Both the position numbers and the translations under genes were made by a program. A model generated the notes under the pieces. It worked only from the letters and a program-made list of their open reading frames with translations, did no database searches and was not told where the DNA came from. A stretch of DNA of 64,000 nt from an uncultured Chloroflexia bacterium (lineage in GTDB: Bacteria > Chloroflexota > Limnocylindria > Limnocylindrales > CSP1-4). The stretch spans positions 2,112,001 to 2,176,000 of the forward strand of contig OY970218.1 in NCBI GenBank assembly GCA_963713975.1, written 5' to 3'. Positions 38,881-64,000 of the stretch are shown piece after piece; positions within the stretch are counted from its first letter, which is position 1, and the number at the start of each line of letters is the position of its first letter.

Positions 38881-39827
38881 TCAGGCTGACACCTGGTCAG
38901 CGTCCTTGATCTCGTCGCCCTCGTAGTAGTAGGACAAGTCCGCCGCGCGGATGATCGTGGCCCGCCGGACGGGCGGGTGCTGCGAGCCGAGACCAAGCAA
39001 CGACTGGAAGGCAGCCTCCGGGTTCTGACGACGGTTGAACCGGAACACGAACTCGTCGAGGTAGGCTTGGAGATGGGGCCGGCCGACGCCGTGATGCGTG
39101 CCGTTGATCCGCACCTTCATGTTCGAGATCACCCGGTGCGCGAGCGGGACAATTTGGTGGTCACGGGTCGCCTTGCCTTGGGTGCGCATCAGCGACTCGT
39201 AGCCGAGCTCGCGGCACGCCGCCCCATAGCCGCCGAGGGCATCCGAGCGGATCGTGGAGCCGGGGCGCACGTGCCGTTCTAGGAAGTCGGCGATCCACGT
39301 AGAGTTCTCGGCCTGCACCACCTCCATCCGGCAGCGGCCGGCGTAGTCGCGGGCGTGAATCACCCCGTCCTTGTCGGTCCAGGTCTTGGTCCGGACCTCG
39401 ATGGCGGCCAGCACCATCGCCGCCTGGCGACCCGTCCGCTGGCGGTTTCACATTCACGGCCGCCCGCCGCATCTTATGGAGCAGGAACCAGGCGGTCTTG
39501 TGGTTGCCGAGGTCGAGCTGCGAGTCGAGGTAGATCGCACTGATCCCGCGCTTGTCGATCGCCAGCACGAACGCCGCGTGGAACCTACGTCATGAGCGAG
39601 AGCCGGGTGTGGTCCATCACGGTCCCAGAGGTCGCGCTCGTCTGCTTCCGGCAGGCCGGGCATTGCCAGAGGCGCTTGATCGTCCGGGGTGTCCAGGGCT
39701 TGGCGTCGGCTGCGCACGACCGGATGCGCGCGTTGATCTCCCAGCCGCCCTCGTGCTGGCAGTGCGGGCACACGAACCCGTCAGGCCAGCGGCTCTTTAC
39801 CAGGTAGTCGTGGCACGCCCTCCGCGG
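38881..39827 (-). mobile_element. Decayed IS1595-family transposase (5' truncated, frameshifted, internally deleted)
   Basis: YL...RWPDGFVCPHC...WQCPACRKQTSATSGT zinc ribbon; 1-nt insertion near 39586; KRGISA...TAWFLLHKMRRA; TIRSD..GY, N.K..INGTHHGV...HLQAYLDEFVFRFNRR. Confidence 0.9.
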
Positions 39828-47687: not shown

Positions 47688-49419
<1,732 letters not shown>

Positions 49420-49423
<4 letters not shown>

Positions 49424-50814
49424 GCGAGGTTGCGGATGGCCTGGTCCTGCGGGGCTGGGCAGTGGACCCGGCGAGCGGACACGATGGCGCTGCCGAGGTG
49501 TCGGTGCAGAACGGCGTGCTCGAGCGCCTGACCTGGCTCTCCGGATCGGACGCGGACGGCCTCGGCCCGGAGGGGACGCTGATCCTGCCCGGCCTGGTGG
49601 ACCTGCATGCGCACTTCCGCGAGCCCGGCAACGAGGATGCCGAGACGGTCGCCACGGGCCAGGCGGCGGCGGCGCACGGAGGCTTCACCACGGTTGCCGT
49701 GATGCCCAACACGACCCCGGCCGTCGACGAGCCAGGGGTTGTGGCGCGGATCCTCGCGGCCGCCTCGTCCTCCGGCTCCCCCGTGCGGGTGATGGTCCAC
49801 GGAGCCGTTACCGCAGGTCGCAAGGGGGAGACGCTGGCCGCGTTGGGCGAGCTTGCCGACGCCGGCGTCGCGGGCTTCTCCGATGACGGGGCGCCCGTGC
49901 ACGCTGCCGCCATCCTGCGCAATGCCCTCGCCTACGCGGGCTCGCTGGGGCTCCCGGTCATCGACCACCCGGAGGACCCGGCCCTCACCGGTGGCGCAGA
50001 GGCGTCTGAGGGCTATGTCGCCAGCGTGCTCGGGCTCCGCGGCTGGCCGGTCGCCGGCGAGGCGGGCGCCGTCGCCAGGGCGATCGCGATCCTCGCCGAC
50101 GTGGTGGCTGACGTGCCGGGCGCCAGGCTCCACCTGACCCACGTCTCCACGGCCGCGTCTCTGGACCACGTCCGGGCGGCAAAGGCCGCGGGCCTGCCCG
50201 TGACCTGCGACGTCACGCCGCACCACCTCGCCTTCACGGATGAATGGATCGCCGGTTCGCGGCGCTGGGCGTGGGAGGCGCTGGGCCCGGATGGCTCGGC
50301 GCGGGACCCGTGGGTGGACGGGTCGCTGGTCGCCGCGCCGTTCGACACCTCGCTGCGGGTGAATCCCCCGCTGCGGTCCGCACCCGATGCCGCCGCCTGC
50401 ATGGCGGCGCTCGCCGATGGGACGGCGGACGCGATCGCCACGGACCACGCGCCGCACACCGAGGTGGACAAGCACGTCGAGTTTGGCTGGGCGATCAACG
50501 GCATCAGCGGGATCGAGACCGCACTGCCGATCGCGCTGGCGGCGGTTGAGGCGGGGCTGCTGCCCCTCGCGCGGGCCGTGGAGGCCCTGACCACCGGTCC
50601 GGCGCGGATCCTCGGGGACCGGATCGCGGTGGAGCCGGGACTTCGTGAAGGCGAGCCGGCCGACCTCGTCGTCGTGGACCGGGGGGCGCGCTGGACCGTG
50701 ACCCGGGAGACGTTGCGCTCGAAGGGCAAGAACTCACCCCTGCTCGGCCGCGAGATCCGCGGCGTCGTGCGGCTGACCCTCGCCGCCGGCCGCGTCGCCT
50801 ACGGCGCCGACTGA
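49420..50814 (+). CDS. pyrC: Dihydroorotase (type I)
   Basis: DLHAHFREPG, MPNT.P, FSDDG, DVTPHHL, VNPPLR, IATDHAPH, GKNSP. Confidence 0.96.
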
Positions 50815-50866: not shown

Positions 50867-51880
50867 TCAACGGCGCACCGGTGCTGGCACGGCCACCGGA
50901 CGGCCCGCGCCAAGGACCCGCAGGTCGCGCTCGGCCATGAGCATCCAGCGCACGCTGCGGACCATCCCCGGGCCGCGTGCCCCGTCGAGCACACGCACAT
51001 ACCAGACGGGTTCGGACGGGGATCCCGCGCCGGCGACCAGGGCGGCCGCCGGATCGAGCGCGGCGACTGCGTCCGGCCATAGCAGGACGCCCGACAACGG
51101 CAGGTCTGCCGCATCGAGGAAGGCGAACGGGTTTGGTCGTCGCTCACCCGTGTCAAGGCGGCTCGCGATGAGGGGTGTCAGGCCGACACGCGCGCCGTCG
51201 GCCCAGGCGAAGCGCTCCACGACGAGCACCTCCTCGCAGGTGTCGGGCCCGATCCCACACCGCGGTCCGGAGGCTCCGAACCGGCCGATCACCAGGACGC
51301 GGGGATCTCCGTCGACGGCGGGACGGGTCGCATCGGTGACCGCTGCAGGCAGACGCACGCCGATCGGGATGGACAGGTGGACATGGGGGGCGACTGCGCC
51401 GAGAAGCGTGTCGCGCGCGGCCCGGGGCGCATCCGCAAGGGTGGCCGCCCGCTCGCACCACGGGCCGAGCGATCCGCCGGCCTCATCGACGCAGGCGCCA
51501 TCGACCGGCCCGAGGCCGCGGAGGTAGCCGGTCACCGCAAGTGCCACGGCGGCTCCACCTTCGTCCTGTGCGGCAAGTGCCTCGCCCACGGTCCGGGACG
51601 AGAGGTCGCCGAGCTGGCCCGGGGGCTCGGGAGACCCATCCAGGATGACCGCGGGCGATGGGGAGGCAGGGACCGTCGACGGCGACAATGCCGATGGCGC
51701 CGTGGTCCCGGCGGGACCGGCCACGGCGGGCGTCGGTGCCGTCCTGTCCTCCGGCCTCGACCCGAGCACGCCGACGGCCACGACCGCGGCCAGCAGTGCC
51801 ACCGGCACGATGAGGGCGGCCAGGCGCACCGCGCGGCGGACCGGCGATCGCGGGTTGGTGGGAGTCGGCTCGATGATCAT
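50867..51880 (-). CDS. Hypothetical membrane-anchored protein
   Basis: N-terminal TM helix, Pro/Thr/Ser linker, Cys-containing extracellular region. Confidence 0.65.
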   Translation of the reverse strand: MIIEPTPTNPRSPVRRAVRLAALIVPVALLAAVVAVGVLGSRPEDRTAPTPAVAGPAGTTAPSALSPSTVPASPSPAVILDGSPEPPGQLGDLSSRTVGEALAAQDEGGAAVALAVTGYLRGLGPVDGACVDEAGGSLGPWCERAATLADAPRAARDTLLGAVAPHVHLSIPIGVRLPAAVTDATRPAVDGDPRVLVIGRFGASGPRCGIGPDTCEEVLVVERFAWADGARVGLTPLIASRLDTGERRPNPFAFLDAADLPLSGVLLWPDAVAALDPAAALVAGAGSPSEPVWYVRVLDGARGPGMVRSVRWMLMAERDLRVLGAGRPVAVPAPVRR

Positions 51881-51934
51881 CGCTTGCCCGACTCTACGAT
51901 GCAAGGGCTCCGCTGGATGTGAGGCCTCGGCCGG

Positions 51935-52315
51935 CTATTCCGGCGGCGGCGTCGGACCCAGGCCGGGCGGGGGCCGGCCGGAGCGGCAGCTGAAGCAGGT
52001 GTCGCGATCACCGGCGTTCAGGGCCGAGCACGACGCACATGTCCACCACGCGCTCGGATCGGTCGGGCGCGGCAGCGCGGCAGCCTCGCGGCGCAGGCGC
52101 ACCGCGACCACGGCGGCCGCGATCATGCCGGCCGTCACCAGCACCAGCATCAGCAGCACCGGGGTCACAAGGTCGCCAGAGGTGTCGACGGGGATCCCGT
52201 ACTCGTTGACCTTTGGCGAGGGCTCGTCGGCCGACACGGGGGACGCCGCCATCGCGGCGACGCCGAGTGCGGCGAGCCAGACCAGGAGCGACAACGCCCG
52301 ACGTGTCCAAACCAT
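51935..52315 (-). CDS. Small membrane protein with RanBP2-type zinc finger
   Basis: Signal peptide, TM helix, W-T-C-x2-C-x3-N-x6-C-x2-C. Confidence 0.7.
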   Translation of the reverse strand: MVWTRRALSLLVWLAALGVAAMAASPVSADEPSPKVNEYGIPVDTSGDLVTPVLLMLVLVTAGMIAAAVVAVRLRREAAALPRPTDPSAWWTCASCSALNAGDRDTCFSCRSGRPPPGLGPTPPPE

Positions 52316-52350: not shown

Positions 52351-53112
52351 TCAAGCGATCCCGCCGCCGTCCACGACGAGGATGGCGCCCGTGACCCAGG
52401 CGGCGGCGCCGGACGCCAAGTAGAGCACGGCCTGGGCGATGTCGTCCGGGGTGCCCAGGCGGGCGAGGGGTCGCTCGGCACCCTCCGCCAGGAACGACGC
52501 CTCGTCCTGGCCCAACTGGCGCGCCTCGTTGCGCAGCATCGGTGTGTCGGTGTCGCCCGGGCAGACGCAGTTGACGCGAATGCCGGCCGACCCGTGGTCG
52601 ATGGCCATGGCCTTGGTCATGTTCACCACGGCGCCCTTCGAGGCGCAGTAGCTCACGGCGTTGCCGCCGCCCTTGAGCCCCCAGCCCGACCCGATGTTGA
52701 CGATGGCACCCCCGCCGCCGGCAGCCATGACCGGGACGGCGTGCTTGCCCATCAGGAAGATCGAGCGGACGTTCACGGCCATGACGGCATCCCACTCCTC
52801 CTCGGTCGTGCCCACCACGTCGGCGCGGCGGATGATCCCGGCCGCGTTCACGACGACGTCGAGGCTCCCGAACGCGGAAGTCGCCGTCTCGACCAGGCGG
52901 CGGCAGTCGTCGCTCTTCGTCACGTCCGCCACGCCCGTGACCGCCGCGCCTCCGGCTGCAGCGATCTGCGCCACCGTTGCCGCGGCGCCGTCCCCGTCGC
53001 GGTCGGCGACGACGACCTTCGCGCCTTCCGCGGCCAGTCGGATCGCCGTCGCCCGGCCGATGCCGGACGCTGCCCCCGTCACGATCGCGGTCCGTCCATT
53101 CAGTGCATCCAT
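52351..53112 (-). CDS. Short-chain dehydrogenase/reductase
   Basis: TGAASGIG, NAAG, S..., YCASK, RVNCVCPG. Confidence 0.94.
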   Translation of the reverse strand: MDALNGRTAIVTGAASGIGRATAIRLAAEGAKVVVADRDGDGAAATVAQIAAAGGAAVTGVADVTKSDDCRRLVETATSAFGSLDVVVNAAGIIRRADVVGTTEEEWDAVMAVNVRSIFLMGKHAVPVMAAGGGGAIVNIGSGWGLKGGGNAVSYCASKGAVVNMTKAMAIDHGSAGIRVNCVCPGDTDTPMLRNEARQLGQDEASFLAEGAERPLARLGTPDDIAQAVLYLASGAAAWVTGAILVVDGGGIA

Positions 53113-53149
53113 GCGTCCACCTGTGTCTCTCGGCCAGGCACGCCGGCCG

Positions 53150-54325
53150 TCATGCGGGGGCCACGGGCACAACCGCGCGCTCCCTGTATCCCGTTACCAC
53201 GGTCAGATAGCCGGCCAGCTCCCGGTCCAGCTCCGCGTCGCCCGTGTCCACCAGCAGGGGCCGGCTCCCGAGCTCGGCCAGCTTCCGCGATGTTGCCACC
53301 ACGACCAGGCCCGCTCGACCCACGGCGCGGATGACGTCGGGCGCGATCTGCTGGTTGCCCCGCCCGAAGAGGAACCCCTGTCCTCCGATTGGCGTGACGA
53401 TGATCGAGGCCTCCCGACCGTTGACCGCCGCGCGGAGCGCCTCGTCGCCGGCGTCCTGGGCGACGACGATCGCCTGGGCTGACGTCCCGTCGGCCCGAGC
53501 TGGAGCGGCCGCCTCGATCACGTCGACTCCCACCAGCGTCTTGGGAACGCCAAGCGCCTCGGCGACCGCGCGAACGGTGGTTCCCGGGCCCAGCACGTAG
53601 CGGCGTCCCGGCACGACCGAGGCGGCCACGTCCGCTGCGATCGCCGCCATCGAAACCGACTCGCCGGCGGGGGAGGGGGCCTTGCGCGCCTGCACCAGCC
53701 GGCCGACCGGGACGCGGAGCGTCCCATGGAGCTCTGCGTACAGGCCGGGCCCGTCGGCCAGGTCCGCAACCTCGCGCTCCGACGTGCGCCGGGCGCCGGA
53801 CCGGAGCCACGCGGCGGCGAGTCGGCCCGCCGCGGCCGGGCTGGTCGCGAACACGGCGGACTGGACCTTCACTCCGGTCGGGATGCCCAGCACGACCTGC
53901 GAGGTGCCCACCGCGGCGGTCACGTCCCGGGCGGTGCCATCGCCGCCGGCGAACAGGAGAAGGTCGACGCCCAGGTCACGCAGCACGACGGCCGCCGCCC
54001 GGGTGTCGGCAGCCGTCGTGGGACCCTCGTGCCGCTCGCCGACGACCCGGGCGTCGACCTCGGCCGTCCCGGCCGGGATCTCGCCCATCTGGCCGGATGC
54101 GACGAGTAGATCGGGGACCGGCACGCCGGCCGGCCACGCGTCGAGCAGCGCGGTCAGCGCCTCCGCCGCACGCTCGCCTGAGTGGGGCCGGGCCCCGAGC
54201 TCTCGGGCCCGTTCGGCCAGCCCCGGATCGTCGGTGCCCTTGAGGCCCACGGGACCGCCGAGCCCGGCGATCGGGTTGACGATGAGGGCCACGCGGGGGT
54301 GTCCGCCCCGCTGGTCGTCAGTCAT
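53150..54325 (-). CDS. ATP-NAD kinase/AcoX-like family protein
   Basis: IVNPIAG.GG..GLKGTD, GGDGTARD, GIPTGVK..S.VFA, GGQGFLFGRGNQQ, VDTGD. Confidence 0.85.
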   Translation of the reverse strand: MTDDQRGGHPRVALIVNPIAGLGGPVGLKGTDDPGLAERARELGARPHSGERAAEALTALLDAWPAGVPVPDLLVASGQMGEIPAGTAEVDARVVGERHEGPTTAADTRAAAVVLRDLGVDLLLFAGGDGTARDVTAAVGTSQVVLGIPTGVKVQSAVFATSPAAAGRLAAAWLRSGARRTSEREVADLADGPGLYAELHGTLRVPVGRLVQARKAPSPAGESVSMAAIAADVAASVVPGRRYVLGPGTTVRAVAEALGVPKTLVGVDVIEAAAPARADGTSAQAIVVAQDAGDEALRAAVNGREASIIVTPIGGQGFLFGRGNQQIAPDVIRAVGRAGLVVVATSRKLAELGSRPLLVDTGDAELDRELAGYLTVVTGYRERAVVPVAPA

Positions 54326-55949
54326 CGGCCCCCGCGGTTGCGGCACCGGGGCGGACGTGCTTGCGCTGGTAGGCGCGCCAGGTGGGCGTCCAGCGGTCCG
54401 GGTCATCGAACCAGGAATGGTCGATCTGGTGGATGGTGCTGTTGTGGGGAGCCGTCCGCACGGTCTCCGGGTCCTCGTAGGCCTCGCTCGACACGGTTCG
54501 CAGCATCGCCACGTACTCGTCCAGGTCGGCCTGCGAGTAGGACTCCGTGGGCTCGAGCGTCATCGGCTCGGGCACGACGTACGGGTGATGGCTGGTCCAG
54601 TAGTGCATCCCGAAGTCCGCCGCCCGGATCCCCAGCTCCTCGCTGTGGATGCCGGTGTCGGACGCCAGCTGCTCCCAGCTGTAGCGGACCTGCTCGATGC
54701 GGCGATGGCCCTCGGCGTAGGGCGCAGCAACCCCCCTGACCGCCAGCACCTGCCGCAGCAGGTAGTTGTTGTTGAGGACGGCGACCTCGGCCGTCTCGCG
54801 GAGGCCATCGGCGCCCATGCTCATGATCCAGGCGTAGGCGCGGACGAGGTTGGGGGCGATCCCGTACCAGGGTCGGACCTTGCCGATCGAGAGCGGTCGG
54901 TCGTGATCGAGCCGGAAGCGGTCGCCGTCGCGCTCGACCGTGGGCCGGGGGAGGAACGGCGCCAGCTCCGAGCTGACGCCGCATGCGCCCGCGCCCGGGC
55001 CTCCCGAGCCATGTGGCGTCGAGAACGTCTTGTGCAGGTTGAAGTGGCACAGGTCGAAGCCGGCGTCACGGGCCCGGGTGATGCCCAGGATCCCGTTGGC
55101 GTTGGCCTGGTCGTAGGCGGCAAGGCCGCCGACCTCGTGGACCGCCTTCACGAACTCGTCGATCTCGGGGTTGTAGATCCCTGTGTCCTCCGGGTTCGTG
55201 ACCAGGATCGCCGCCGTGCGCTCGGAGAGGACGCTCTTGAGCGCGGCGAGCGTGGGTCTGCCGAGGAGCGGATCCGGCATCAGCGTGATGACCTTGAACC
55301 CGGCGGTCTTGGCGCAGGCCGCGTTGGAGGGGTGGCTGAACATGGTCGTGACGATCTCGTCGCGCTGCCCGGACTCGCCGCGCGCGACGTGGTAGGCGCG
55401 GATCATCGACACGTTGGCCCAGATCGCCGCCGAGCCCGAGGCGGGGTGCAGGGTGACCCGGTCCATGCCCGAGATCTCCTTGAGCGCCTGCTCGAGGCGC
55501 CACATGATCTCGAGGGTTCCCTGGACGGTGGACTCGTCCTGGGCCGGGTGGACATCGGCCTGCTTGTGGTTCCGGACCAGCTGGTCGTTGACCTTGGGCG
55601 AGTACTTCATCGTGCAGGTGCCCTGCCCGATGTCGATGTTGAGGTCGACCCCCAGGTTCTCCTGCGAGAGCCTCGCGTAGTGGCGCATGACGTGCACCTG
55701 TGCGAGCTCCGGCAGGGCCGCCGGCATCGCGCGGCGGACGCCGGCCGGCAGGGTGTCGGCAGGGTTGCCGACACGCGCCGTGATGGCGGCCTCGACCTCG
55801 GGCACCAGCAGGCCCCGGGCGCCCGGGGTGGACAGCTCGAAGATGACCGGCTCGTCCCAGCTCGCTTGGTGGAAGCGACGGGGCATGGGCTTGGGGGCGA
55901 TGGCGCCGTCGTTGGGGGCCGATGCCATGCCGGAATGGCTGTCGCTCAT
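54318..55949 (-). CDS. Divergent glycine decarboxylase P-protein subunit 2 (GcvPB-like)
   Basis: LPEL....VMRHY.RLSQ, GTCTMKY.P, YDQANANG, HFNLHKTFSTPHG.GGPG (PLP Lys), EPTES. Confidence 0.88.
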   Translation of the reverse strand: MSDSHSGMASAPNDGAIAPKPMPRRFHQASWDEPVIFELSTPGARGLLVPEVEAAITARVGNPADTLPAGVRRAMPAALPELAQVHVMRHYARLSQENLGVDLNIDIGQGTCTMKYSPKVNDQLVRNHKQADVHPAQDESTVQGTLEIMWRLEQALKEISGMDRVTLHPASGSAAIWANVSMIRAYHVARGESGQRDEIVTTMFSHPSNAACAKTAGFKVITLMPDPLLGRPTLAALKSVLSERTAAILVTNPEDTGIYNPEIDEFVKAVHEVGGLAAYDQANANGILGITRARDAGFDLCHFNLHKTFSTPHGSGGPGAGACGVSSELAPFLPRPTVERDGDRFRLDHDRPLSIGKVRPWYGIAPNLVRAYAWIMSMGADGLRETAEVAVLNNNYLLRQVLAVRGVAAPYAEGHRRIEQVRYSWEQLASDTGIHSEELGIRAADFGMHYWTSHHPYVVPEPMTLEPTESYSQADLDEYVAMLRTVSSEAYEDPETVRTAPHNSTIHQIDHSWFDDPDRWTPTWRAYQRKHVRPGAATAGADD

Positions 55950-57361
55950 CGGATGACCTCCCGGATGGTCTCGACGAGACCATCGATGTCCCGCTGCGTC
56001 CGCACCTCCGTGACGGCGATCAGCGCCGCCTGCCCGAGCTCCGGGAGCTCCCGAGAGAGGTCCTTGCCGCCGATGATCCCGTGCCCGAGGAGCGCTCCAT
56101 TGATCTCCGCGACGGTCCTGCCGGTGGCGCTGAAGTCCACGACGAACTCGTTGACGTGGTGCGACCCGAGGTGGGGGACGGACACGCCAGGCAGCTCCAC
56201 CAGGCGCTCCATGGCATACCGCGAGCGGGCCATCATCCGCTCGCCCAGGTCCCGCATGCCCTGCGGCCCCATCAGGGACAGGTAGACGCCCGCCGTGATG
56301 CCCCACAGGGCCGCGGCCGTGCCGACCCATTCCTTGCCGTCCTCGCGGATCGCGAACGAGGTTCGCTCGTAGGCCACGTCGCCGAACCCGTACTCGCCGG
56401 GGACCGTCGTGGGCGCGATGCCGAACAGGCGCGACGGGTACTCCAGCACGATCCTGGGATCGTCATGCGAGGCGATGAAGCCGGCGTGGCCGCCACCGAA
56501 ATGCTGGTGCATGCCCAGGGGCTGGATGTCGCCGCAGGCGATGTCCGCATCGAAGGTGGCGGGCGGGGCAAGCACCCCGAGGGTGGCCGGATTGACCGCC
56601 ACGACCGCGAGCGCGCCGATGCCGTGGGCCAGCTCGACGATCGTGCCCGGCTCCGTCTCCACGACGCCGAGGTACGAGGGCTGCTCGAAGTAGACGGCCG
56701 CGACCGTGTCGTCCAGCGCCGCGCGCAGGGCGACGAGATCCACGGTCCCCGTCGTCGGGTCGGCCGGAACCAGTTCGAGGTCGAGGTTGGGGCCGCTGTG
56801 GTCGCGATACTTGGACAGCTTGTCGCCGTCGATGGAGCCGGCCAGCAGGACCCGTCGCCGGCCGGTCACCCTCGCCGCCATGCCCAGGGCCGTCGCCCCG
56901 GCCTGGAAGCCGTCGTAGACCGGGACGTTGACGACGTCCATCTCGAGCAGCTCGCCCATCATCGAGACGTACTCGAACAGGGCCTGGAAGCGGCCGTGGT
57001 CCTCGTACGGCTCGCCAGCGTAGGCGGTCAGGAACTCGCCGCGGCCGTTGACCTCGTCGCACACCGCCGGGACGTGGTGGTCGTAGCAGCCGGCGCCGAG
57101 GAAGCTGACGGCATCGCGGGTCGACACGTTCCTGTTGAGGAGGCCCTCGACGTGCCGCACGAGCTCCGCCTCGGACGCCAGCGCCGGTGGCAGGTCGAGC
57201 GGGCGGCGCAGCCGGAGGCGCTCCGGGATATCTGCGTAGAGCTCCTCCACGCTCGCCGCGTCGACGGCCTCGAGCATCGTTGCCCTGACCCGGGGCTCGG
57301 AGTTCGGGATGTACGGGTGCACGACCGGCCCGGGTCGTACCGCAGCTCTGTGGTCGGTCAC
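55946..57361 (-). CDS. Divergent glycine decarboxylase P-protein subunit 1 (GcvPA-like)
   Basis: HPYIPN, FLGAGCY.H.VP, RGEFLTAY, QALFEY, G..QPLG....GG; GGAGGA RBS before GTG57361. Confidence 0.88.
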   Translation of the reverse strand: MTDHRAAVRPGPVVHPYIPNSEPRVRATMLEAVDAASVEELYADIPERLRLRRPLDLPPALASEAELVRHVEGLLNRNVSTRDAVSFLGAGCYDHHVPAVCDEVNGRGEFLTAYAGEPYEDHGRFQALFEYVSMMGELLEMDVVNVPVYDGFQAGATALGMAARVTGRRRVLLAGSIDGDKLSKYRDHSGPNLDLELVPADPTTGTVDLVALRAALDDTVAAVYFEQPSYLGVVETEPGTIVELAHGIGALAVVAVNPATLGVLAPPATFDADIACGDIQPLGMHQHFGGGHAGFIASHDDPRIVLEYPSRLFGIAPTTVPGEYGFGDVAYERTSFAIREDGKEWVGTAAALWGITAGVYLSLMGPQGMRDLGERMMARSRYAMERLVELPGVSVPHLGSHHVNEFVVDFSATGRTVAEINGALLGHGIIGGKDLSRELPELGQAALIAVTEVRTQRDIDGLVETIREVIR

Positions 57362-57423
57362 GGTTCCTCCATGATTGGGTGTCCCAGCGCCCCCGGGGGC
57401 CGTGGTCGTTCGGTGGTGGAGCG

Positions 57424-58227
57424 TCAGGCCGTGCGGATCCAATCACGACTCGCGAGCCCGCCGGCGAGCTCGCCACCGTCGATCGGGATGGCCGTCCCCG
57501 TCAGGTAGGCACCCTCGTCGGAGGCGAGCCAGGCGAACAGCCCGGCGATCTCCTCCGGGCGCGCATGCCGGCCAATGGGGATCCTGGCGTCGGTGGCCGT
57601 GAGCATCTCGGGCGTGTATTCGGATTGCTGCATCGGGGTCATCACGTAGCCGGGACAGATGGCATTGACGCGCACGACGGGCGCGAGCTCCAGGGCCATC
57701 GAGCGGGCGAGCAGGATGACGCCGGCCTTGCTGGCGTTGTAGTCGGCATAGAAGGGGTGCCCCACGACACCGTTGGTCGACGCGGTCATGAGGACCACGC
57801 CGGACCCCTGCGCCACCATCCGGCGGGCGGCCTCCTGGGCACAGTTGAAGACACCGTCGAGGTTGACGGCCATGACCCGACGCCACTCCTCGGGTGTGAT
57901 GTCGAGGAAGTTGTGTCGGATGCTGATCCCGGCGTTGGCGACCAGCACATCGACACCGCCCAGGAGCCGGTCCACGGTCTCGAACGCAGCGTCCACGGAG
58001 GCACGGTCGGCGACGTCTGCGTTCACGATGCCCGCCAGACCGGACAGCTCGTCCCCGACCACGTCCAGCCGCGCACCGTCGCGGTCGAGCACGACGACCC
58101 GGGCGCCCTCGGCGACGAACCGCGCCGCGGTGGCCAGGCCGATGCCACTCGCGCCTCCGGTGACGACGACGCGGCGTCCTGCCAGGTCCGGGTGGCGGGC
58201 GATGGTGCCCGCGGAGCCAGTATTCAC
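57424..58227 (-). CDS. Short-chain dehydrogenase/reductase
   Basis: TGGASGIG, ANAGI, YNASK, RVNAICPG. Confidence 0.94.
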   Translation of the reverse strand: MNTGSAGTIARHPDLAGRRVVVTGGASGIGLATAARFVAEGARVVVLDRDGARLDVVGDELSGLAGIVNADVADRASVDAAFETVDRLLGGVDVLVANAGISIRHNFLDITPEEWRRVMAVNLDGVFNCAQEAARRMVAQGSGVVLMTASTNGVVGHPFYADYNASKAGVILLARSMALELAPVVRVNAICPGYVMTPMQQSEYTPEMLTATDARIPIGRHARPEEIAGLFAWLASDEGAYLTGTAIPIDGGELAGGLASRDWIRTA

Positions 58228-59372
58228 GTGGAAGCCTCCTGCGGCTGATCGGGGTCCGTCGAGTCGCCGGCAGTCGGGGCCTTGCCGGCGCGCCGGCGCT
58301 CGCGTCGGCGGAGGAGCACCTCGTCCAGCTCGAGAAGGCCCAGGAGCCCGTTCGGGCGGCGGTACATCACGAGAATGATGGTCAATCCCAACGTGACCTC
58401 CTGGAGGCCGAAGATACCGTTGAGCGTGAAGTCGCCGATGGTGAGGCCGCTCAGCATGCCCTCCACGCGGCGCGCGATCTCCACGAGGACCGATACGAGA
58501 ACAGCGCCGCCGACCGCGCCGCTGACGGTTGACCGGCTTCCCACGACGAGCATCGCCAGGAGGGCAAACTGCAGCGTGAAGTAGAACTGCTTGGGTGAGA
58601 AGGCGGTTAGCGTGTGGCCGAGGAGGACGCCGGCGACGCCGACGACGAGGGCGCTCAGCAGCCAGGCAATGAGGCGGACGCTCGGGATGTTGATGCCCAT
58701 CGCGCGGGCGGCCATCTCGTCCTCGCGGGTTGCCCGGATTCGCAGGCCGACTGTTGACTCGCGGAACAAGCGCGCGATGAGGATCGCGAGCAGGGCGACC
58801 CCGAGGGCCACCCAGATCGTGACGACGGGCGGCACGCCGTAGAAGGTCTGGCTGCCCCGGGTGATGTCAGCCGCACCCACGAGCACCACGTAGACAATCA
58901 TCAGCATCGCCAACGTTGCGATTGGCGTGGCGGCCGCCGAGAGGCGGGACAGGGGAATGCCGAAGAGCAGGGCGACGAGCGCGACCACGACGAGCGCGAC
59001 GAGCGTCGCCAGGACCAGCGGCAGTTGGATGTCCCGCAGGAATGGCAGCAGGTTCGGCAGCGCCTGCGACTTGATGACCGGGTCCATGGTGAGGATGCCC
59101 GCGGCGTAGGCGCCTACCCCCATAAAGGCGACATGGCCGAAGGTGAGGATGCCGGTGTTGCCGCTGTAGATCCCGAAGCCCACGACCGCGATCAGCGAAA
59201 TCAGGAAGTTCTGGGTGACCTGCTGCTCGGTGGGACCCAGGAGCAGGACGACGATCGCCGTGAGCGCCACGAGCGGAGTCCCCAGCGTGGTAACGCCGGC
59301 GAGGGCACGGACCACTGGGCGGTCCATGGACAGGTCGCGTCCGGCGACACGGATCACGGCTGCGCTGGTCAT
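58224..59372 (-). CDS. Branched-chain amino acid-type ABC permease (LivM-like)
   Basis: TGILTFGHVAFMGVGAY, GLRIRATREDEMAARAMGIN, RPNGLLG. Confidence 0.92.
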   Translation of the reverse strand: MTSAAVIRVAGRDLSMDRPVVRALAGVTTLGTPLVALTAIVVLLLGPTEQQVTQNFLISLIAVVGFGIYSGNTGILTFGHVAFMGVGAYAAGILTMDPVIKSQALPNLLPFLRDIQLPLVLATLVALVVVALVALLFGIPLSRLSAAATPIATLAMLMIVYVVLVGAADITRGSQTFYGVPPVVTIWVALGVALLAILIARLFRESTVGLRIRATREDEMAARAMGINIPSVRLIAWLLSALVVGVAGVLLGHTLTAFSPKQFYFTLQFALLAMLVVGSRSTVSGAVGGAVLVSVLVEIARRVEGMLSGLTIGDFTLNGIFGLQEVTLGLTIILVMYRRPNGLLGLLELDEVLLRRRERRRAGKAPTAGDSTDPDQPQEAST

Positions 59373-60256
59373 ACGCGGTCCGTGACCTTCCCAAGGAGCC
59401 CCTGCGGCCGCCACAAGAGGATCACGATGACAATCGTCAGCGCGACTGCGTCTTTGAACGGCAGCGCGGATTGGGGGAGCCAAGCTTGGAGCATGACCTG
59501 GATGAAGCCGAGGACGAAGCCACCGAGCACGGCACCCGAGAGGCTGCCGAGCCCGCCCAGGACGGCGGCGATGAAGGCGTTGATCACCGGCGCAAGGCCC
59601 ATCATCGGCTCGACCGAACCGCGCTGGGCAACGTAGAGGAAGGCCGCAACCCCGGCCAGGAGGCCGGAGATCGCGAAGGCAGTCGCGATGACGGCATCGG
59701 CGCGGATACCCATGAGGCGGGCGACCGAGAAGTCCTGGGCGGCGGCCCGCATGCTGATTCCGAGCGTCGTCCGGCGAAGGAATAGCGTGATCAGCACCAG
59801 CGATACCAGCACGAGAACGATGGCGGTCAACTGGATCAGGCCGATGCCGACACCCAGGATTGGGACCTGCTGGCTCAGCTCGTCCGGCAGCTGGATGCCG
59901 CGCGGCCGCGGCGAGATGACGTTCTGGAAGGCGACCTGCAGGATGATGCTCACCGCGAAACTCGTGAGCAGCAGGGTGGCCCCGCTTGCCCCCCGTACCG
60001 GCCGGAACGCAATCCGCTCCATGGCGACGGCGGCCACCATCGCCGTGACGATCGCGGCGGCGAACACAAGGGGCAGCGGTGCGCCAAATGAGACCGTCGC
60101 GACCCACATGGCGTAGCCGCCGAGGGTCATGATCTCGCCGTGGGCGAAGTTGACCATGCCCATGATCGAGAACACGATGGCGAGCCCAAGGGCGAGCAGG
60201 GCGTAGATGCCGCCCAGCGCGATGGCGTTGACGATCTGTTGGACGAAGATGTCCAT
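59369..60256 (-). CDS. Branched-chain amino acid-type ABC permease (LivH-like)
   Basis: YALLALGL, VNFAHGE, G..MRAAAQD...A.LMGI, GGLGS..GA..GG, RPQGLLG. Confidence 0.93.
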   Translation of the reverse strand: MDIFVQQIVNAIALGGIYALLALGLAIVFSIMGMVNFAHGEIMTLGGYAMWVATVSFGAPLPLVFAAAIVTAMVAAVAMERIAFRPVRGASGATLLLTSFAVSIILQVAFQNVISPRPRGIQLPDELSQQVPILGVGIGLIQLTAIVLVLVSLVLITLFLRRTTLGISMRAAAQDFSVARLMGIRADAVIATAFAISGLLAGVAAFLYVAQRGSVEPMMGLAPVINAFIAAVLGGLGSLSGAVLGGFVLGFIQVMLQAWLPQSALPFKDAVALTIVIVILLWRPQGLLGKVTDRV

Positions 60257-60975
60257 CAGTCAGCCCCGATGCCCAGATACGCGCGCTCGATGCCGCTCGA
60301 CGCGCGCAGTTCGGCGGCCGGCCCCTCGAGCTGCAGTTGGCCAGAGGCCAGCACATAGCCACGATCGGCGATCGAGAGCGTCAAGTCCACGTTCTGCTCC
60401 ACAAGCAGGATCGTCACGCCGTCCTTTCGTAACTCGAGGATCAGGTCGAAGATCAGATCGACGAACTTGGGTGCCAGGCCGAGCGACGGCTCGTCGAGGA
60501 GGAGGAGGCGCGGGCTCGACATCAGCGAGCGGGCGATGGCGAGCTGCTGCTGCTCGCCGCCCGAGAGCGTCCCGGCCGCCTGACGACGGCGCTCGGCGAG
60601 CACCGGGAACCGGGTGTAGGCCATGTCCCGGAGCTCGCCTGCCCTGGAGCGCTCCTTGAGGGGAATCCCGCCCAGGAGGAGGTTCTCGTCAACTGAGAGA
60701 GTGGCGAAGACGCGCCGGCCCTCCGGGGTCAGCGTCATGCCCATGCGCACGATGCGCTCAGGCCGCATGCCGACGATCTCCTGCCCGTCGAAGCGGACGC
60801 TGCCCTCAACGTGGGGCACAAGGCCCATGAGCGCGTTGAGCGTGCTCGACTTGCCGGCTCCGTTGGCGCCGAGGACGGCGACGATCTCGCCGGCCTCGAC
60901 GTGGAAGGAGAGGTCTCGGACGGCCCGGATCGCGTCGTACGCGACGGACAACCGTTCGACGGACAGGACCGCCAC
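60256..60975 (-). CDS. ABC ATPase (LivF-like)
   Basis: [36 protein letters not shown]. Confidence 0.94.
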
Positions 60976-60991
60976 GGTGATGGACTCCGGG

Positions 60992-62164
60992 CTAGGGGGC
61001 TGGGATGTCGGCCGCGGCCGGTTCTATGGTCTTGAGCAGTTCGAAGGAGCCGTCCTTGACGGTGACGAGGTAGACCGTCTTGAGCGGGATACGGTTCTCG
61101 CCCTTGTACGTGATCGCTCCGGTGGCGCCCTTCACGTTCTCCAGGTTGTTGATCGCGTCGCGGACCTTGGCCGGATCGACCGAGTCGGCGGCAATGACCG
61201 CGGCCTCGACGATCTTGACCAGGTCGTAGCCGGTGGCCGCGAAGACGCTGTCCGGCGGTGAGCCGTACTCCTTCTCGTAGGCGGCCCAGAAGTCGGCAGT
61301 GGGCGTGCCCGCGGCCGGGAAGCCGTGGGTGGTGAAGACGAGGCCCTCGACGGCGCTGCCGCCCGCGGACAGGGTGTCCTGGGAGTCCACACCATCGATC
61401 GAGATCACCGGGGTCGTGACCCCGGCCGCCCGGAGCTGCTTGATAAAGGTCGGAGCATCCGGCGGGTAGGCGGGCGTCATGATGACGTCTGGTGCCGGGG
61501 ACATGCCCTGGATCTTGGTGACCTCCGCCGTGAAGTCGGCCGCCCCGAGGGTGAATGAGCCACGGCCCGCGATGGTGCCGCCCTTGTCCTCGAACACCGT
61601 CGCGAAGTAGTCGCACGACTTGCTGGTGTAGGAGGAGTCGGGGGAGCAAAGCAGGTAGGCGTTCTTGTACCCGGTTTCGGCGGCGTAAGTCGCCAGCGCC
61701 GTCGCCTGGGTGTTGTCACCGAACACGCTCATGAACATGAAGTCGCCGACGGACGCCGGCAACGTCGGCGAGGTCGCCGCCGTGGACATCGTGGGGATGC
61801 CCGCCGTCTGAGCGATCTGGCCGGCCGCCGTGCACGGATCCGCGTCCGAGGTGCAGATGAGGAAGTTGACGTCCTTTGAGATGAGGTCCTGGGCGACCAC
61901 GGCACTCTGTGCGGCCTCGGACCGGTTGTCCTGGAGGTTCAGTTCGATCGGCCACTTGCCGGCGATGCCGCCGTTGGCATTGATCTCCTTGATCGCCAGC
62001 TGAACACCTTTGGACGCAGGGACGTCCGAGTAGGCAAGGCCGCCCGTCTGCGACGAGTCATAGCCGATCGAATACGTGTCGCCGCCGCCGCTGTCGCTGC
62101 CGCCGCAGGCCGCCACGGCCAGCATCACAGCTGCTGCAGCGCCGACCAACTTCCGTCCGTTCAT
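60992..62164 (-). CDS. ABC substrate-binding lipoprotein (LivJ/LivK-like)
   Basis: Lipobox [35 protein letters not shown]. Confidence 0.92.
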
Positions 62165-62287
62165 GTTGCCCTCGCCCTCCTTCTTGACCTCTCGCGGCCC
62201 TTTCGGACTGCCGTCGGGAGCCGTCCCAGTCGGGGCATGCTCCTCGTGGCTGCTCGACCCGGCCCGTACGTCCGGTTTCCGCCGTCC

Positions 62288-63112
62288 CTACGCCGGTACC
62301 GCCCCCATGGGTGCGCCCGTCTCCGCCCTCCCATCGGTGCCGACCGCGCGGCGGCCGAGATAGGCCTCGCGCACCGCGGGGTCCTCGCCGATCTCGGCGA
62401 CGCTCCCCATGGCGATGCGGTTGCCCTCGTTGAGGACCACGATCCTGTCCACGAGCCGCATGATCAGCCGCAGGTCGTGCTCGACCACGAGGATGCCAAG
62501 GCCATGTTGGTGACGCAGGTCGCCGATGAGCTCGCGCAGGGCGTCCGACTCCGCCTCGTTGGCGCCCGCTGCCGGCTCGTCCAGCAGCAGGTATTGGGGG
62601 TTCGTGGCCAAGGCGCGCGCGATCTCAAGGCGACGGCGGACGCCGTACGGGAGTGTGTCGGCCCGGCGGTCCGCGACGTCGGAGAGGCCCATCTCCACGA
62701 GCATCGCCCGCGCCGCCCGTCGGAGGGCCGCCCCGCCCGGCCGGTTCGGGTGGAGCGCAGCCCCGACCTCGACGTTCTCGAGGACCGTGAGCTGCTTGAA
62801 CAGGCGGATGCTCTGGAAGGTGCGGGAGATGCCGAGTACCGCGATCCGGTGGGCCGGCGCGTGGGTGATGTCTTGCCCGTCGAGGTGGATCGTCCCGCCC
62901 GTGGGGATGAGCATGCCCGACAACACGTTCAACAGGGTCGTCTTGCCGGAGCCGTTGGGCCCGATCAGGCCGACGATCTCGCCTGGGACGAGGTCGATGT
63001 CGATTCCCTTGAGGGCGCGCAGCCCACTGAACTGCATCTCGATGCCGCGGGCGACGAGCGCGCGCGCCGAGCCCAGCTTGATTGGCGGCGAGGTGGACGG
63101 ATGGCTAGACAC
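62288..63112 (-). CDS. ABC ATPase (LivG-like)
   Basis: GPNGSGKT, RTFQ, LPYG.RRRLEIARAL, LDEPAAG, VEHD, V.EAYLG; GTG63112 with GGAG RBS. Confidence 0.93.
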   Translation of the reverse strand: MSSHPSTSPPIKLGSARALVARGIEMQFSGLRALKGIDIDLVPGEIVGLIGPNGSGKTTLLNVLSGMLIPTGGTIHLDGQDITHAPAHRIAVLGISRTFQSIRLFKQLTVLENVEVGAALHPNRPGGAALRRAARAMLVEMGLSDVADRRADTLPYGVRRRLEIARALATNPQYLLLDEPAAGANEAESDALRELIGDLRHQHGLGILVVEHDLRLIMRLVDRIVVLNEGNRIAMGSVAEIGEDPAVREAYLGRRAVGTDGRAETGAPMGAVPA

Positions 63113-63288
63113 GGATCTCCACCACCATGGGCAGGAAACCTCGGGTTGCTTCAAGGGACACCCGGGCGCGTGCTTCGCTTTCGCAAGTCGTCCACCCAGT
63201 CCTTAGGCCTTGCTAGACTACACGAACCGGTCAAGACGAAAGCGCTCATTGGCAATCCGCAAGCGAACGGCGCTCGAGAGGAACACAC

Positions 63289-64000
63289 GTGGCCAGCGAA
63301 TCCAAGCGCATCGCGCCCCTGGTCTCTCCGGAAGGGTTGGTCCTGCCGATGCCCGTCCGGCGAGCCCGTGTGCTAGAGACCGTCCGTCGGGAGCAATTCG
63401 CCTCGGTTGCCGACCTGAGCGCCGCGTTCGGTGTGTCGGAGGTCACCATCCGCAACGATCTCGACATCCTCGCCGGAGAGGGCGCGCTGCGCCGCGTTCG
63501 CGGCGGTGCGGTGCACCGTACGGGCCGGAACTTCGAGGAGCCATTCGAGGACGCGGAGGTGCGGCAGGTTGCGGCCAAGCTCGCGATCGCCGCGGCCGCC
63601 GCCGAACTCGTAGAGAGCGGGCAAACGGTCATCCTCGACGCGGGCGCCACCGCGACCGTCACGGCGCGGGCGATCGCGGCACGCGAGGATCTCCACGACG
63701 TGTTGGTCTTCACGAATGGTGTCCCCGTAGCGCTGGCCCTGGAGCCCGCGATACCCCGCATCTCGGTGCTGCTCACTGGCGGAACGCTGCGCCGACTCCA
63801 GCACTCGTTGGTGAACCCGTTCGGCACGACGATCCTCGACCAGGTCCATGCGCACCTGGTCATCCTCGAGTGCGACGGGATCGACGCCTCCGCCGGTATC
63901 ACGCACATCAACGTCGCCGAGGTGGAGATCAAGCGGCTCATGATGCGCGCGGCTCGAAAGCGTGTTCTCGTGGCCGACAGTTCCAAGGTTGGCCAGGTCA
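63289..64000 (+). CDS. DeoR/GlpR-family regulator, 3'-truncated by window edge
   Basis: Not in ORF track (no stop in window): RRARVLE...SVADLS..FGVSEVTIRNDL..L...G..RRVRGGA, K.AIA..AA, LDAGAT, TGG.LR, ADSSK. Confidence 0.92.
   Translation, partial: MASESKRIAPLVSPEGLVLPMPVRRARVLETVRREQFASVADLSAAFGVSEVTIRNDLDILAGEGALRRVRGGAVHRTGRNFEEPFEDAEVRQVAAKLAIAAAAAELVESGQTVILDAGATATVTARAIAAREDLHDVLVFTNGVPVALALEPAIPRISVLLTGGTLRRLQHSLVNPFGTTILDQVHAHLVILECDGIDASAGITHINVAEVEIKRLMMRAARKRVLVADSSKVGQV

Follow-up and report, generated by a model that had tools for sequence, protein, structure and literature searches.

The locus and its gene calls

The window, i.e., the whole stretch of 64,000 nucleotides analysed here (positions 2,112,001 to 2,176,000 of contig OY970218.1, assembly GCA_963713975.1, from an uncultured Chloroflexia bacterium), carries in its last 12 kb an operon that combines two divergent relatives of the subunits of glycine decarboxylase, the glycine cleavage system's P protein, with a kinase-like protein, two short-chain dehydrogenases (SDRs) and an ATP-binding cassette (ABC) importer. 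The divergent alpha and beta subunits are called PA' and PB' below, the kinase-like protein KIN, and the dehydrogenases SDR1 and SDR2. As the region has about 70% G+C, which gives long open reading frames (ORFs) on both strands, true frames were picked by third-position G+C content (GC3); this, the ORF list and scans against Pfam and NCBIfam all place the operon genes on the minus strand. The features of the operon are as follows:

52351-53112, minus strand: SDR2, a classical short-chain dehydrogenase, final gene of the operon (Pfam adh_short_C2, 3.6e-64)
53150-54325, minus strand: KIN, an ATP-NAD kinase family protein of the NAD-kinase/diacylglycerol-kinase fold (Pfam NAD_kinase N and C domains)
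54318-55949, minus strand: PB', divergent beta subunit of a P-protein-like enzyme, binding pyridoxal phosphate (PLP) (NF003346 GcvPB; 1wyt_B, 6.9e-94)
55946-57361, minus strand: PA', divergent alpha subunit (NF001696 GcvPA; 1wyt_A, 1.4e-57; Pfam GDC-P, 1.2e-50)
57424-58227, minus strand: SDR1, a classical short-chain dehydrogenase (Pfam adh_short_C2, 2.1e-62)
58224-59372, minus strand: livM-type ABC permease (Pfam BPD_transp_2; best NCBIfam model UrtC/LivM, below cut-off)
59369-60256, minus strand: livH-type ABC permease (Pfam BPD_transp_2; best NCBIfam model UrtB/LivH, below cut-off)
60256-60975, minus strand: livF-type ABC ATPase (NF008626 LivF, 238.8 bits, below cut-off)
60992-62164, minus strand: lipoprotein substrate-binding protein (Pfam Peripla_BP_6, 2.3e-59)
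62288-63154, minus strand: livG-type ABC ATPase, start between 63037 and 63154 (NF008449 LivG, 233.8 bits, below cut-off)
63289 or 63346 to beyond the window end at 64000, plus strand: DeoR-family regulator (Pfam HTH_DeoR and DeoRC; 276 residues in the genome)

The minus-strand order is thus livG, binding protein, livF, livH, livM, SDR1, PA', PB', KIN and SDR2 with the DeoR gene divergent, as a first-pass annotation made from the sequence alone had proposed. Its description of mostly overlapping stops and starts also holds, since five of the nine operon junctions overlap by 1–8 nucleotides (PB'/KIN -8, PA'/PB' -4, livM/SDR1 -4, livH/livM -4 and livF/livH -1) and the remaining junctions measure 16–123 nucleotides. 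The start of the livG-type gene was placed upstream of 63037 because the profile alignment opens at model position 13. All components of the importer have Liv or Urt models as their best matches and every one falls below the Liv equivalog cut-off, and the nearest solved relatives of the binding protein are the branched-chain amino-acid binders 3td9 and 4gnr (E 1e-35), with urea binders far weaker. The matches of SDR2 in the Protein Data Bank (PDB) are generic and include TsaC, an SDR-type aldehyde dehydrogenase.

A divergent pair of P-protein subunits

Judged from their motifs, PA' and PB' appear to form a P-protein-derived PLP enzyme in which the fold and the PLP lysine are kept and in which the active-site loop of the alpha subunit, together with the predicted docking stretch for the H protein, has been rebuilt. 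The PLP-lysine motif NLHKTF of PB' (55023-55040, residues 304–309) is intact and conserved in PB' and canonical rows alike. The replacements pointed out in the first-pass annotation are present as well, namely QGTCTMK for LGSCTMK in PB' (55605-55625), YAGEPYE in PA' (57002-57022) where canonical GcvPA has YTPYQxE, and RTSFAIREDGKEWVGT in PA', which was given there as 56321-56365 and in fact starts 3 nucleotides away, at 56318, so that it spans 56318-56365. These forms are shared by the clade to which PA' belongs: its members have YAGEPYEDHGRFQ where canonical sequences have YTPYQPEISQGTLQ, and RTSF..RE.GKE.VGT in place of REQHIRREKATSNICT, the new form being conserved across the clade. Expressed as consensus sequences, the clade has EFLTAYaG-epYeDhGrfQ and RTSf..Re.gke.vGT against YTPYQpEiSQGtLQ and REQHIrREkAtSNICt, both nearly invariant, in canonical subunits. 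PB' likewise has GQGTCTMKYSP, HPSDAA and YDQAN against canonical LGSCTMKYNP, HGTNPA and YDGAN, and 15 positions are fixed differently between PB' and canonical PB, in a comparison split at 45% identity so that the canonical side holds 16 true rows plus the divergent PB' of locus L098 (43% identity). Residues specific to the clade are Y119, D121, H122 and R124 in PA' and W379, E424, Q425, R427 and H460 in PB'.

The positions of the changes in PA' can be read against the human enzyme. An excerpt of a docking study names human Y161 and Y164 as active-site residues and Q366, R373 and K376 as the H-protein interface, where a docking model has R373 and K376 in salt bridges to glutamates of the H protein (PMC7259800). 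When PA' is aligned with the human chain 6i33_A, adding 43 to the chain index reproduces all five residue identities; Y161 and Y164 are then the tyrosines of YTPYQ, and Q366, R373 and K376 lie within QTREQHIRRDK. PA' has Ile and Asp at the positions of R373 and K376. Of the two motif changes, one thus maps to the substrate site and the other to the site where the lipoyl carrier is predicted to dock.

Compared with the window's PA', PA homologues fall into two ranges of identity, 45–75% for those beside KIN and 31–37% for the canonical copies of the same genomes. In a quick IQ-TREE analysis of 78 rows, 19 canonical and 59 PA'-type sequences were separated by a branch with a Shimodaira-Hasegawa-like approximate likelihood ratio (SH-aLRT) support of 100; three rows were left out as duplicates, namely L001 (the canonical PA of this genome, already included once), L118 and L119 (the same as L096 and L066). 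The separate clade expected in the first-pass annotation is thus found, and nesting of PA' among canonical GcvPA is not seen in this tree. The window's PA' is placed among Chloroflexota sequences, beside a group from Actinomadura and Streptomyces.

A third group of PA/PB-like pairs, represented by L099:8819-17284 (the second pair of genome G441) and L117, branches inside the PA' side of the tree. These pairs adjoin an Opp/Dpp-type peptide ABC transporter and lack KIN and SDR. More than one non-glycine function may exist in the P-like family.

Conservation of the module

KIN is the most specific part of the module and was chosen as search marker for that reason. A KIN profile scan of species-representative genomes gave at least 498 confirmed loci, of which 80 were kept for neighbourhood counts, PA' and PB' being scored as a pair when homologues of at least 40% identity lay within 10 kb of KIN. 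Both subunits were found in 58 of the 80 loci, 54 of which read PA'-PB'-KIN and the other 4 KIN-PA'-PB'. Among the others, five have PB' only (a contig end cuts in), one has PA' only and 16 have neither, nine of the last having less than 3 kb of upstream flank. Within 10 kb of KIN, 47 of the 80 loci and 43 of the 58 paired ones have a homologue of SDR1 or SDR2 with at least 45% identity, and the SDR1 homologues present in part of the related loci are 55–77% identical. Clustering of all neighbours returned only KIN, SDR, PA' and PB' as widely recurrent families, the next, a sigma-54 activator, occurring in 11 loci. The core is hence a conserved module of four to five genes: an SDR, PA', PB', KIN and often a second SDR.

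The co-occurrence of the P subunits with the kinase-like gene and the SDRs, which the first-pass annotation had put forward as a check, is seen across phyla. Carriers include Chloroflexota, Actinomycetota (Actinomadura, Streptomyces, Thermoleophilia), Bacillota (Clostridia), Gemmatimonadota, Aminicenantes, Acidobacteriota, a metagenome-assembled genome (MAG) of Rhizobiaceae, Bathyarchaeia and the Heimdallarchaeota (Asgard archaea). Distribution within a lineage is patchy: KIN is present in 3 of 401 genomes of a phylum sample, the genome studied here (G000) included, and was not found in 23 other genomes of the family, three of them of the same genus. On RefSeq plasmid records from Rhodococcus, Gemmobacter and Paracoccus (L122, L123, L125) the PA'/PB' genes beside KIN are named 'aminomethyl-transferring glycine dehydrogenase subunit GcvPA/GcvPB', with the Gene Ontology term glycine catabolic process. 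Such naming by a standard pipeline is expected because both subunits exceed the curated NCBIfam cut-offs, and it is probably over-annotation.

The genes around the module vary. A Liv-type ABC importer and a DeoR gene are found here and in the closest Chloroflexota loci; elsewhere the flanks hold APC permeases, NhaC-type carriers, and GntR, LysR, TetR or sigma-54 activator-type regulators, and acyl-CoA synthetase genes adjoin the module in Rhodococcus and Gemmobacter. These variable transporters and regulators, together with the acyl-CoA synthetase flanks, point to a catabolic-type setting, and the acyl-CoA synthetase neighbours would fit an acid end product. Neither an H-like gene nor cobamide or lipid genes recurred near the module in the clustering of neighbours. 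In Heimdallarchaeota loci (L053:2792-12133 and others) two PAP2 phosphatase genes and a conserved 316-residue ORF that lacks a Pfam match flank the module.

Enzymes of the SDR, lipid-kinase-fold, PLP and PAP2 types are those of sphingoid-base metabolism, and it may be imagined that the lipoyl tunnel of PA'/PB' admits a pantetheine arm, so that the enzyme would link an amino acid with an acyl-CoA, or separate the two, in the manner of alpha-oxoamine synthases; the amino ketone would then be reduced by an SDR to an amino alcohol, the substrate of KIN. Besides the resemblance in enzyme types, such thioester-coupled chemistry can appeal to the acyl-CoA synthetase or 3-hydroxyacyl-CoA dehydrogenase genes that lie beside the module in Rhodococcus, Gemmobacter, Paracoccus and L098, and to the PAP2 genes of the Heimdallarchaeota. 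It is however an argument by analogy, and the CoA-related neighbours are lineage-specific; of the explanations considered here it is the most improbable.

The canonical glycine cleavage system and the question of the H protein

The genome has a canonical system. The genes gcvT-gcvH-gcvPA-gcvPB stand in a row on the same chromosome (3,313,550-3,317,857), 1.15 Mb from the operon, and the single GCV_H match of the genome as well as its only gcvT match above the family cut-off lie there (G000:C1:3316312-3317857). Neither gcvT nor gcvH was found near the cluster, in line with the first-pass annotation, which had also asked for a canonical gcvTHP elsewhere. Since a canonical pair exists elsewhere in the chromosome, PA' and PB' are an extra paralogue and not the only P subunits of the genome.

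Fifty genomes with the module were searched for the PA family and for GCV_H. All 50 have a PA-family match, and nearly all have a canonical P protein, split or fused, besides PA'; the exceptions are G441, G444 and G436. GCV_H was above cut-off in 46 of the 50 and in 10 of 14 control genomes, which is compatible with dependence on H protein, yet GCV_H is common anyway. More telling are three genomes. In G441, a 3.9-Mb Lachnospiraceae record not labelled as MAG and carrying two PA'-type pairs, GCV_H, gcvT and the LplA/LipB catalytic domain were sought and none was found, and neither PA match scores as canonical. The same search in G444, a 1.6-Mb MAG, gave no GCV_H, gcvT, LplA/LipB catalytic domain or canonical PA. 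G473, from a sample of 201 Lachnospirales genomes in which KIN occurs in four, G441 included, has only a PA'-type match, and GCV_H and the LplA/LipB catalytic domain were not found there (gcvT was not sought). These genomes are strong but indirect evidence that the enzyme works independently of H protein.

In 49 of the 50 genomes the module is unlinked to gcvT and gcvH. The exception, L041:4308-17375 from an Eubacteriales Family XIII MAG, has an SDR, PA', PB', an amino-acid permease and KIN, followed by gcvH-gcvPA-gcvPB and an ORF with GCV_T and serine hydroxymethyltransferase (SHMT) domains. This ORF of 885 residues, in which the GCV_T domain is joined to the SHMT domain, appears to be a gcvT-glyA fusion.

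The first-pass annotation had proposed lipoyl-dependent oxidative decarboxylation, with no T protein needed for a larger side chain. In a model of this kind PA'/PB' would oxidatively decarboxylate a larger amino acid and pass the product to the lipoyl arm of the single H protein of the genome, and the adduct would split into aldehyde and ammonia. The kept P-protein fold and PLP site agree with this, as do the presence of one H gene here and the frequency of GCV_H in module genomes, the adjacency of the module to gcvH in L041, and an LplA-like gene near the module in L044. A lipoyl-dependent mechanism is nevertheless doubtful because the module is found in three genomes in which GCV_H, a lipoate ligase domain and canonical GcvPA were not found, two of them also giving no gcvT. 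In addition, the predicted H-binding residues have changed (R373 to Ile, K376 to Asp), no H-like gene recurs near the module, the lipB-type gene of the window is set off by unrelated genes (see below), and the linked KIN is left without a role. On balance this proposal is rather unlikely.

PA'/PB' might also be no more than a further glycine decarboxylase of the usual kind, which as an isozyme would supply the canonical H, T and L proteins when the cell grows on an imported source of glycine. That PA' and PB' pass the NCBIfam equivalog cut-offs and carry GcvPA/GcvPB names in RefSeq would be explained, and H and T are at hand in the genome, as the canonical system is at the side of the module in L041. 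Against it, the clade is deeply separate, the YTPYQ loop and other PLP-site motifs are replaced by new forms that are themselves conserved, the module occurs in genomes in which H, canonical PA or, where sought, gcvT was not found, and the strict link to KIN and SDR has no role in glycine cleavage. An isozyme of this kind is therefore very improbable, and a distinct function of the PA'/PB'-KIN module outside glycine cleavage is likely.

The kinase-like partner

KIN matched no NCBIfam family at E 1e-3 and no PDB sequence at E 0.01, a Foldseek search with its model gave no match at E ≤ 0.001, and its protein atlas entry holds the family name only. Residues G127-G128-D129-G130 are invariant and T131 is nearly so among 30 homologues. 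The AlphaFold2 model (predicted local distance difference test score 88) carries an extra alpha/beta insert, and its best matches are NAD kinases, lipid kinases of the DgkB/YegS type and sphingosine kinase (Z 9–10.6, to the N-terminal domain), NAD and lipid kinases being tied in a wide structural search that barely probed the C-terminal half. A second ORF with a NAD_kinase domain, at G000:C1:2924456, is likely the housekeeping enzyme.

Relatives of KIN number in the thousands, and a sequence library with 1.84 billion representatives holds 613 clusters at E ≤ 1e-30. Away from PA'/PB', such relatives are found with other PLP enzymes and with a dehydrogenase. In Peptoclostridium acidaminophilum a KIN relative overlaps, stop to start, with the gene of a HisC/CobD-like PLP enzyme; in P0123 and P0126 it is fused with a class III aminotransferase; and in Pseudomonadales-type genomes it is fused with (P0122) or adjacent to (L061:8807-11116) a PdxB-like 2-hydroxyacid dehydrogenase with a DUF3410 domain. 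The characterised members of the HisC/CobD-like, class III aminotransferase and PdxB-like families use phosphate esters, such as histidinol phosphate, threonine phosphate, phosphoethanolamine, phosphohydroxylysine and 4-phosphoerythronate. Because of this pattern of PLP-enzyme and PdxB-like partners, KIN is interpreted as a kinase that acts on small compounds of the hydroxy-amino or hydroxy-acid type. AcoX, which is encoded in acetoin operons, is presumably a member of the same family.

Two observations on the relatives may be added. P0126 runs on into PA'-type sequence and is probably frameshifted. At L056:5981-12596 the order is SDR-SDR-GH63/MGH1-like glycoside hydrolase-KIN-UDP-glucose pyrophosphorylase-like, so that both SDRs and KIN are retained and PA'/PB' are replaced.

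If KIN acts on such compounds, it could do so at the end of the pathway. An SDR would oxidise a beta-hydroxy amino acid, for instance serine or threonine, to a 2-amino-3-oxo acid, PA'/PB' would decarboxylate it, the second SDR would reduce the resulting amino ketone or aldehyde to an amino alcohol, and KIN would turn this into phosphoethanolamine or aminopropanol phosphate, to be used in biosynthesis or broken down further. The scheme has a step for every core enzyme and retains the ancestral decarboxylation, and the HisC/CobD-like and class III aminotransferase partners, given the substrate classes just named, fit enzymes of amino-alcohol phosphates. On the other hand nothing in the module would consume the phosphorylated end product, 2-amino-3-oxo acids lose their carboxyl group unaided, 15 of the 58 modules lack an SDR1/SDR2 homologue and part of the rest have only one, and no cobamide or lipid genes recur nearby. 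The 1-amino-2-propanol utilisation locus, as far as it is set out in an excerpt of PMC6620236, has the same kinds of parts, which again speaks for this order of steps. All in all we regard a terminal kinase as unlikely, if less so than a lipoyl-dependent enzyme.

A proposed pathway

The reading that we tentatively favour, at somewhat less than even odds, is that KIN phosphorylates a small hydroxy-amino compound which is then converted by a lipoyl-independent, P-like PLP enzyme. The replacement of the active-site loop YTPYQ makes an amino substrate other than glycine plausible, as suggested in the first-pass annotation; the examples given there, a polyhydroxy amino acid or an amino-sugar acid, may be among the candidates. 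In this scheme the Liv-type ABC system would import a small hydroxylated amino compound, either a beta-hydroxy amino acid or an amino alcohol, and KIN would phosphorylate its hydroxyl group with ATP. PA'/PB' may then act on the phospho-ester by decarboxylation, possibly with loss of phosphate and ammonia, for which known pairs of a kinase and a PLP enzyme give a precedent, and with no lipoyl acceptor, and the SDRs would oxidise or reduce a carbonyl precursor or product. Effectors of DeoR regulators are usually phosphorylated, and the DeoR protein encoded here might sense the phosphorylated intermediate. Gene order, the separate clade, the motif changes, the insertion and the occurrence in genomes where H and lipoylation genes were sought and not found are observed, and substrate class, step order and chemistry are what we infer from these parts. 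It is possible, and somewhat less probable than the two-step reading as such, that PA'/PB' represent the first member of the P-protein family, i.e., of group I of the PLP decarboxylases, to use a non-glycine substrate without lipoyl-H, and that together with an AcoX-type kinase they make up a new and ancient two-step unit, in which a hydroxy-amino compound is phosphorylated and PLP chemistry then removes its carboxyl group or its phosphate.

Several points weigh against a kinase acting ahead of a lipoyl-independent enzyme. On the side of the P subunits, both pass the NCBIfam GcvPA/GcvPB cut-offs (PA' with 460 bits on NF001696, precisely 459.8, against a cut-off of 364 and 562.8 for the canonical PA of the genome; PB' with 572 bits on NF003346 against 441), the H interface in the excerpt of PMC7259800 is that of a docking model and not of a structure, and the DHG(R/K) segment within the altered PA' motif also occurs in the sister group without KIN (L099, L117). 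Genomes, too, can be read otherwise, in that GCV_H is present in most of the 50, the absences in G441, G473 and G444 come from genomes for which completeness figures are not given, the module of L041 abuts canonical gcv genes, so that a link to glycine or H protein may exist, and seven KIN loci whose upstream flank measures 3.2 kb or more lack a detectable PA'/PB' pair, one of which (L067) keeps a PB' fragment. Finally, the substrate classes given for KIN's partner families are those of characterised members, the solved relatives of SDR1, SDR2 and the binding protein are too generic to point to a substrate, and spending ATP in the first step is expensive for a fermentative organism.

The possibility that the basic residues gained in PA'/PB' make up a phosphate site was considered and not adopted. 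Because L099 and L117, which are without KIN, share DHG(R/K), this part of the motif is no basis for assigning a phosphate site linked to KIN.

Genomic setting: an island among pyrimidine genes

The operon forms part of an inserted island between pyrC and pyrD, which bears out the description of a catabolic island in the first-pass annotation. The surrounding features are as follows:

38881-39447, minus strand: ORF of 188 residues
40550-42643, minus strand: ORF of 697 residues
42342-43478: lipB/LplA-type gene, about 9 kb from the cluster and outside the island
47688-50814: pyrR-pyrB-pyrC, left of the operon beyond two ORFs that lack a family match; pyrC ends at 50814
50867-52315, minus strand: two ORFs of 345 and 126 residues at the left edge of the inserted stretch, lacking Pfam and NCBIfam matches
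L120:2135-5017, just right of the window: FmdA/AmdA-like amidase, co-directional with the DeoR gene, and a group II PLP decarboxylase
L120:7634-9931: pyrD and a pyrE-like gene

Past the right end of the window, the DeoR gene is followed by the amidase, the group II decarboxylase (on the other strand), two unknown ORFs, pyrD and the pyrE-like gene. The distance from pyrB to pyrD is 20.2 kb here and 3.8–14.1 kb in the 16 genomes of the family with both genes on one contig, and the gap from 50814 to pyrD is about 19 kb. The varying spacing among relatives suggests a recurrent insertion site. The nearest relatives of the group II decarboxylase are diaminobutyrate and lysine decarboxylases, far below cut-offs; because its homologue in L019, the closest locus, is 78% identical and directly follows SDR2, it belongs to this lineage's version of the island. 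The 345-residue ORF likewise has a counterpart, 34% identical, beside the same operon in L019.

The lipB-type gene is found at the 9 kb distance noted earlier. As a pathway member it was rejected, since a sigma factor gene, two ORFs that lack a family match and pyrR-pyrB-pyrC intervene and since it is not part of the conserved module. Divergent from it runs the 697-residue ORF, which joins an Old-Yellow-Enzyme-like FMN oxidoreductase to a pyridine-nucleotide disulphide oxidoreductase domain, an architecture like that of 2,4-dienoyl-CoA reductase. The 188-residue ORF farther left matches only the C-terminal part of the transposase domain of the IS1595 family (ISXO2-like) and is probably a transposase remnant.

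Implications and comparison with known systems

If the proposal is true, a unit whose carriers range from Asgard archaea to actinomycetes currently goes under the name of glycine cleavage, and the AcoX-type kinase-like family would gain a first function. Reconstructions that count gcvPA and gcvPB, be it for glycine cleavage or for the reductive glycine pathway, may mislead where only the paralogue is present, e.g., in G441. A second specificity without H protein would widen group I of the PLP decarboxylases, in which glycine decarboxylase is the only enzyme in the table of a review seen as an excerpt (PMC11350588). Culturable carriers of the module include Rhodococcus jostii RHA1, Gemmobacter fulvus, Paracoccus aminophilus and Lutispora saccharofermentans.

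The closest structural reference for the two subunits is GcvPA/GcvPB of Thermus thermophilus (1WYT), with which PA'/PB' share the two-subunit architecture, the fold of fold-type I PLP enzymes, a PLP lysine carried by the beta subunit and the Pfam domains GDC-P and GcvP2_C. They differ from it in forming a separate clade, in having the YTPYQ loop and the REQHIRREKATSNICT stretch replaced along with several motifs of the PLP site, and in their link to KIN. In a similar way KIN shares with NAD kinase (PpnK) the fold, the GGDG motif and the Pfam domains PF01513 and PF20143, but it lacks NCBIfam and PDB sequence matches, has the extra alpha/beta insert and a patchy distribution, and is not the sole NAD_kinase-domain gene of its genome.

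Phosphate serves as activating group for PLP chemistry in the pair of PduX threonine kinase and CobD and in that of hydroxylysine kinase and its phospho-lyase. In these pairs the kinase has an aminoglycoside phosphotransferase (APH) or GHMP kinase fold, in contrast to the NAD-kinase fold of KIN, and the PLP enzyme has a class III or class I/II aminotransferase fold and is not P-protein-like; there are also no microcompartment genes here. The likeness is thus one of working principle and not of family. The working analogue nearest in composition is the locus for 1-amino-2-propanol utilisation, for which an excerpt of PMC6620236 lists a permease, a dehydrogenase, a phosphotransferase, a PLP enzyme and a regulator, although both the kinase and the PLP enzyme found here are non-homologous to those of that locus.

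AcoX of acetoin operons, the function of which is stated to be unknown in an excerpt of PMC10107126, resembles KIN in having NAD_kinase N and C domains, a length of about 370–390 residues and a gene beside that of a decarboxylating or cleaving enzyme. The partner of KIN is however a P-like PLP enzyme instead of a thiamine-dependent E1, and no aco genes occur in the annotated loci. In full-text literature searches directed at the module or the family of KIN (with subscription journals outside their coverage) neither a P-protein paralogue linked to an ATP-NAD-kinase-like gene nor any match for COG3199 was found. What appears new here is a set of known folds in an undescribed and widely conserved combination.

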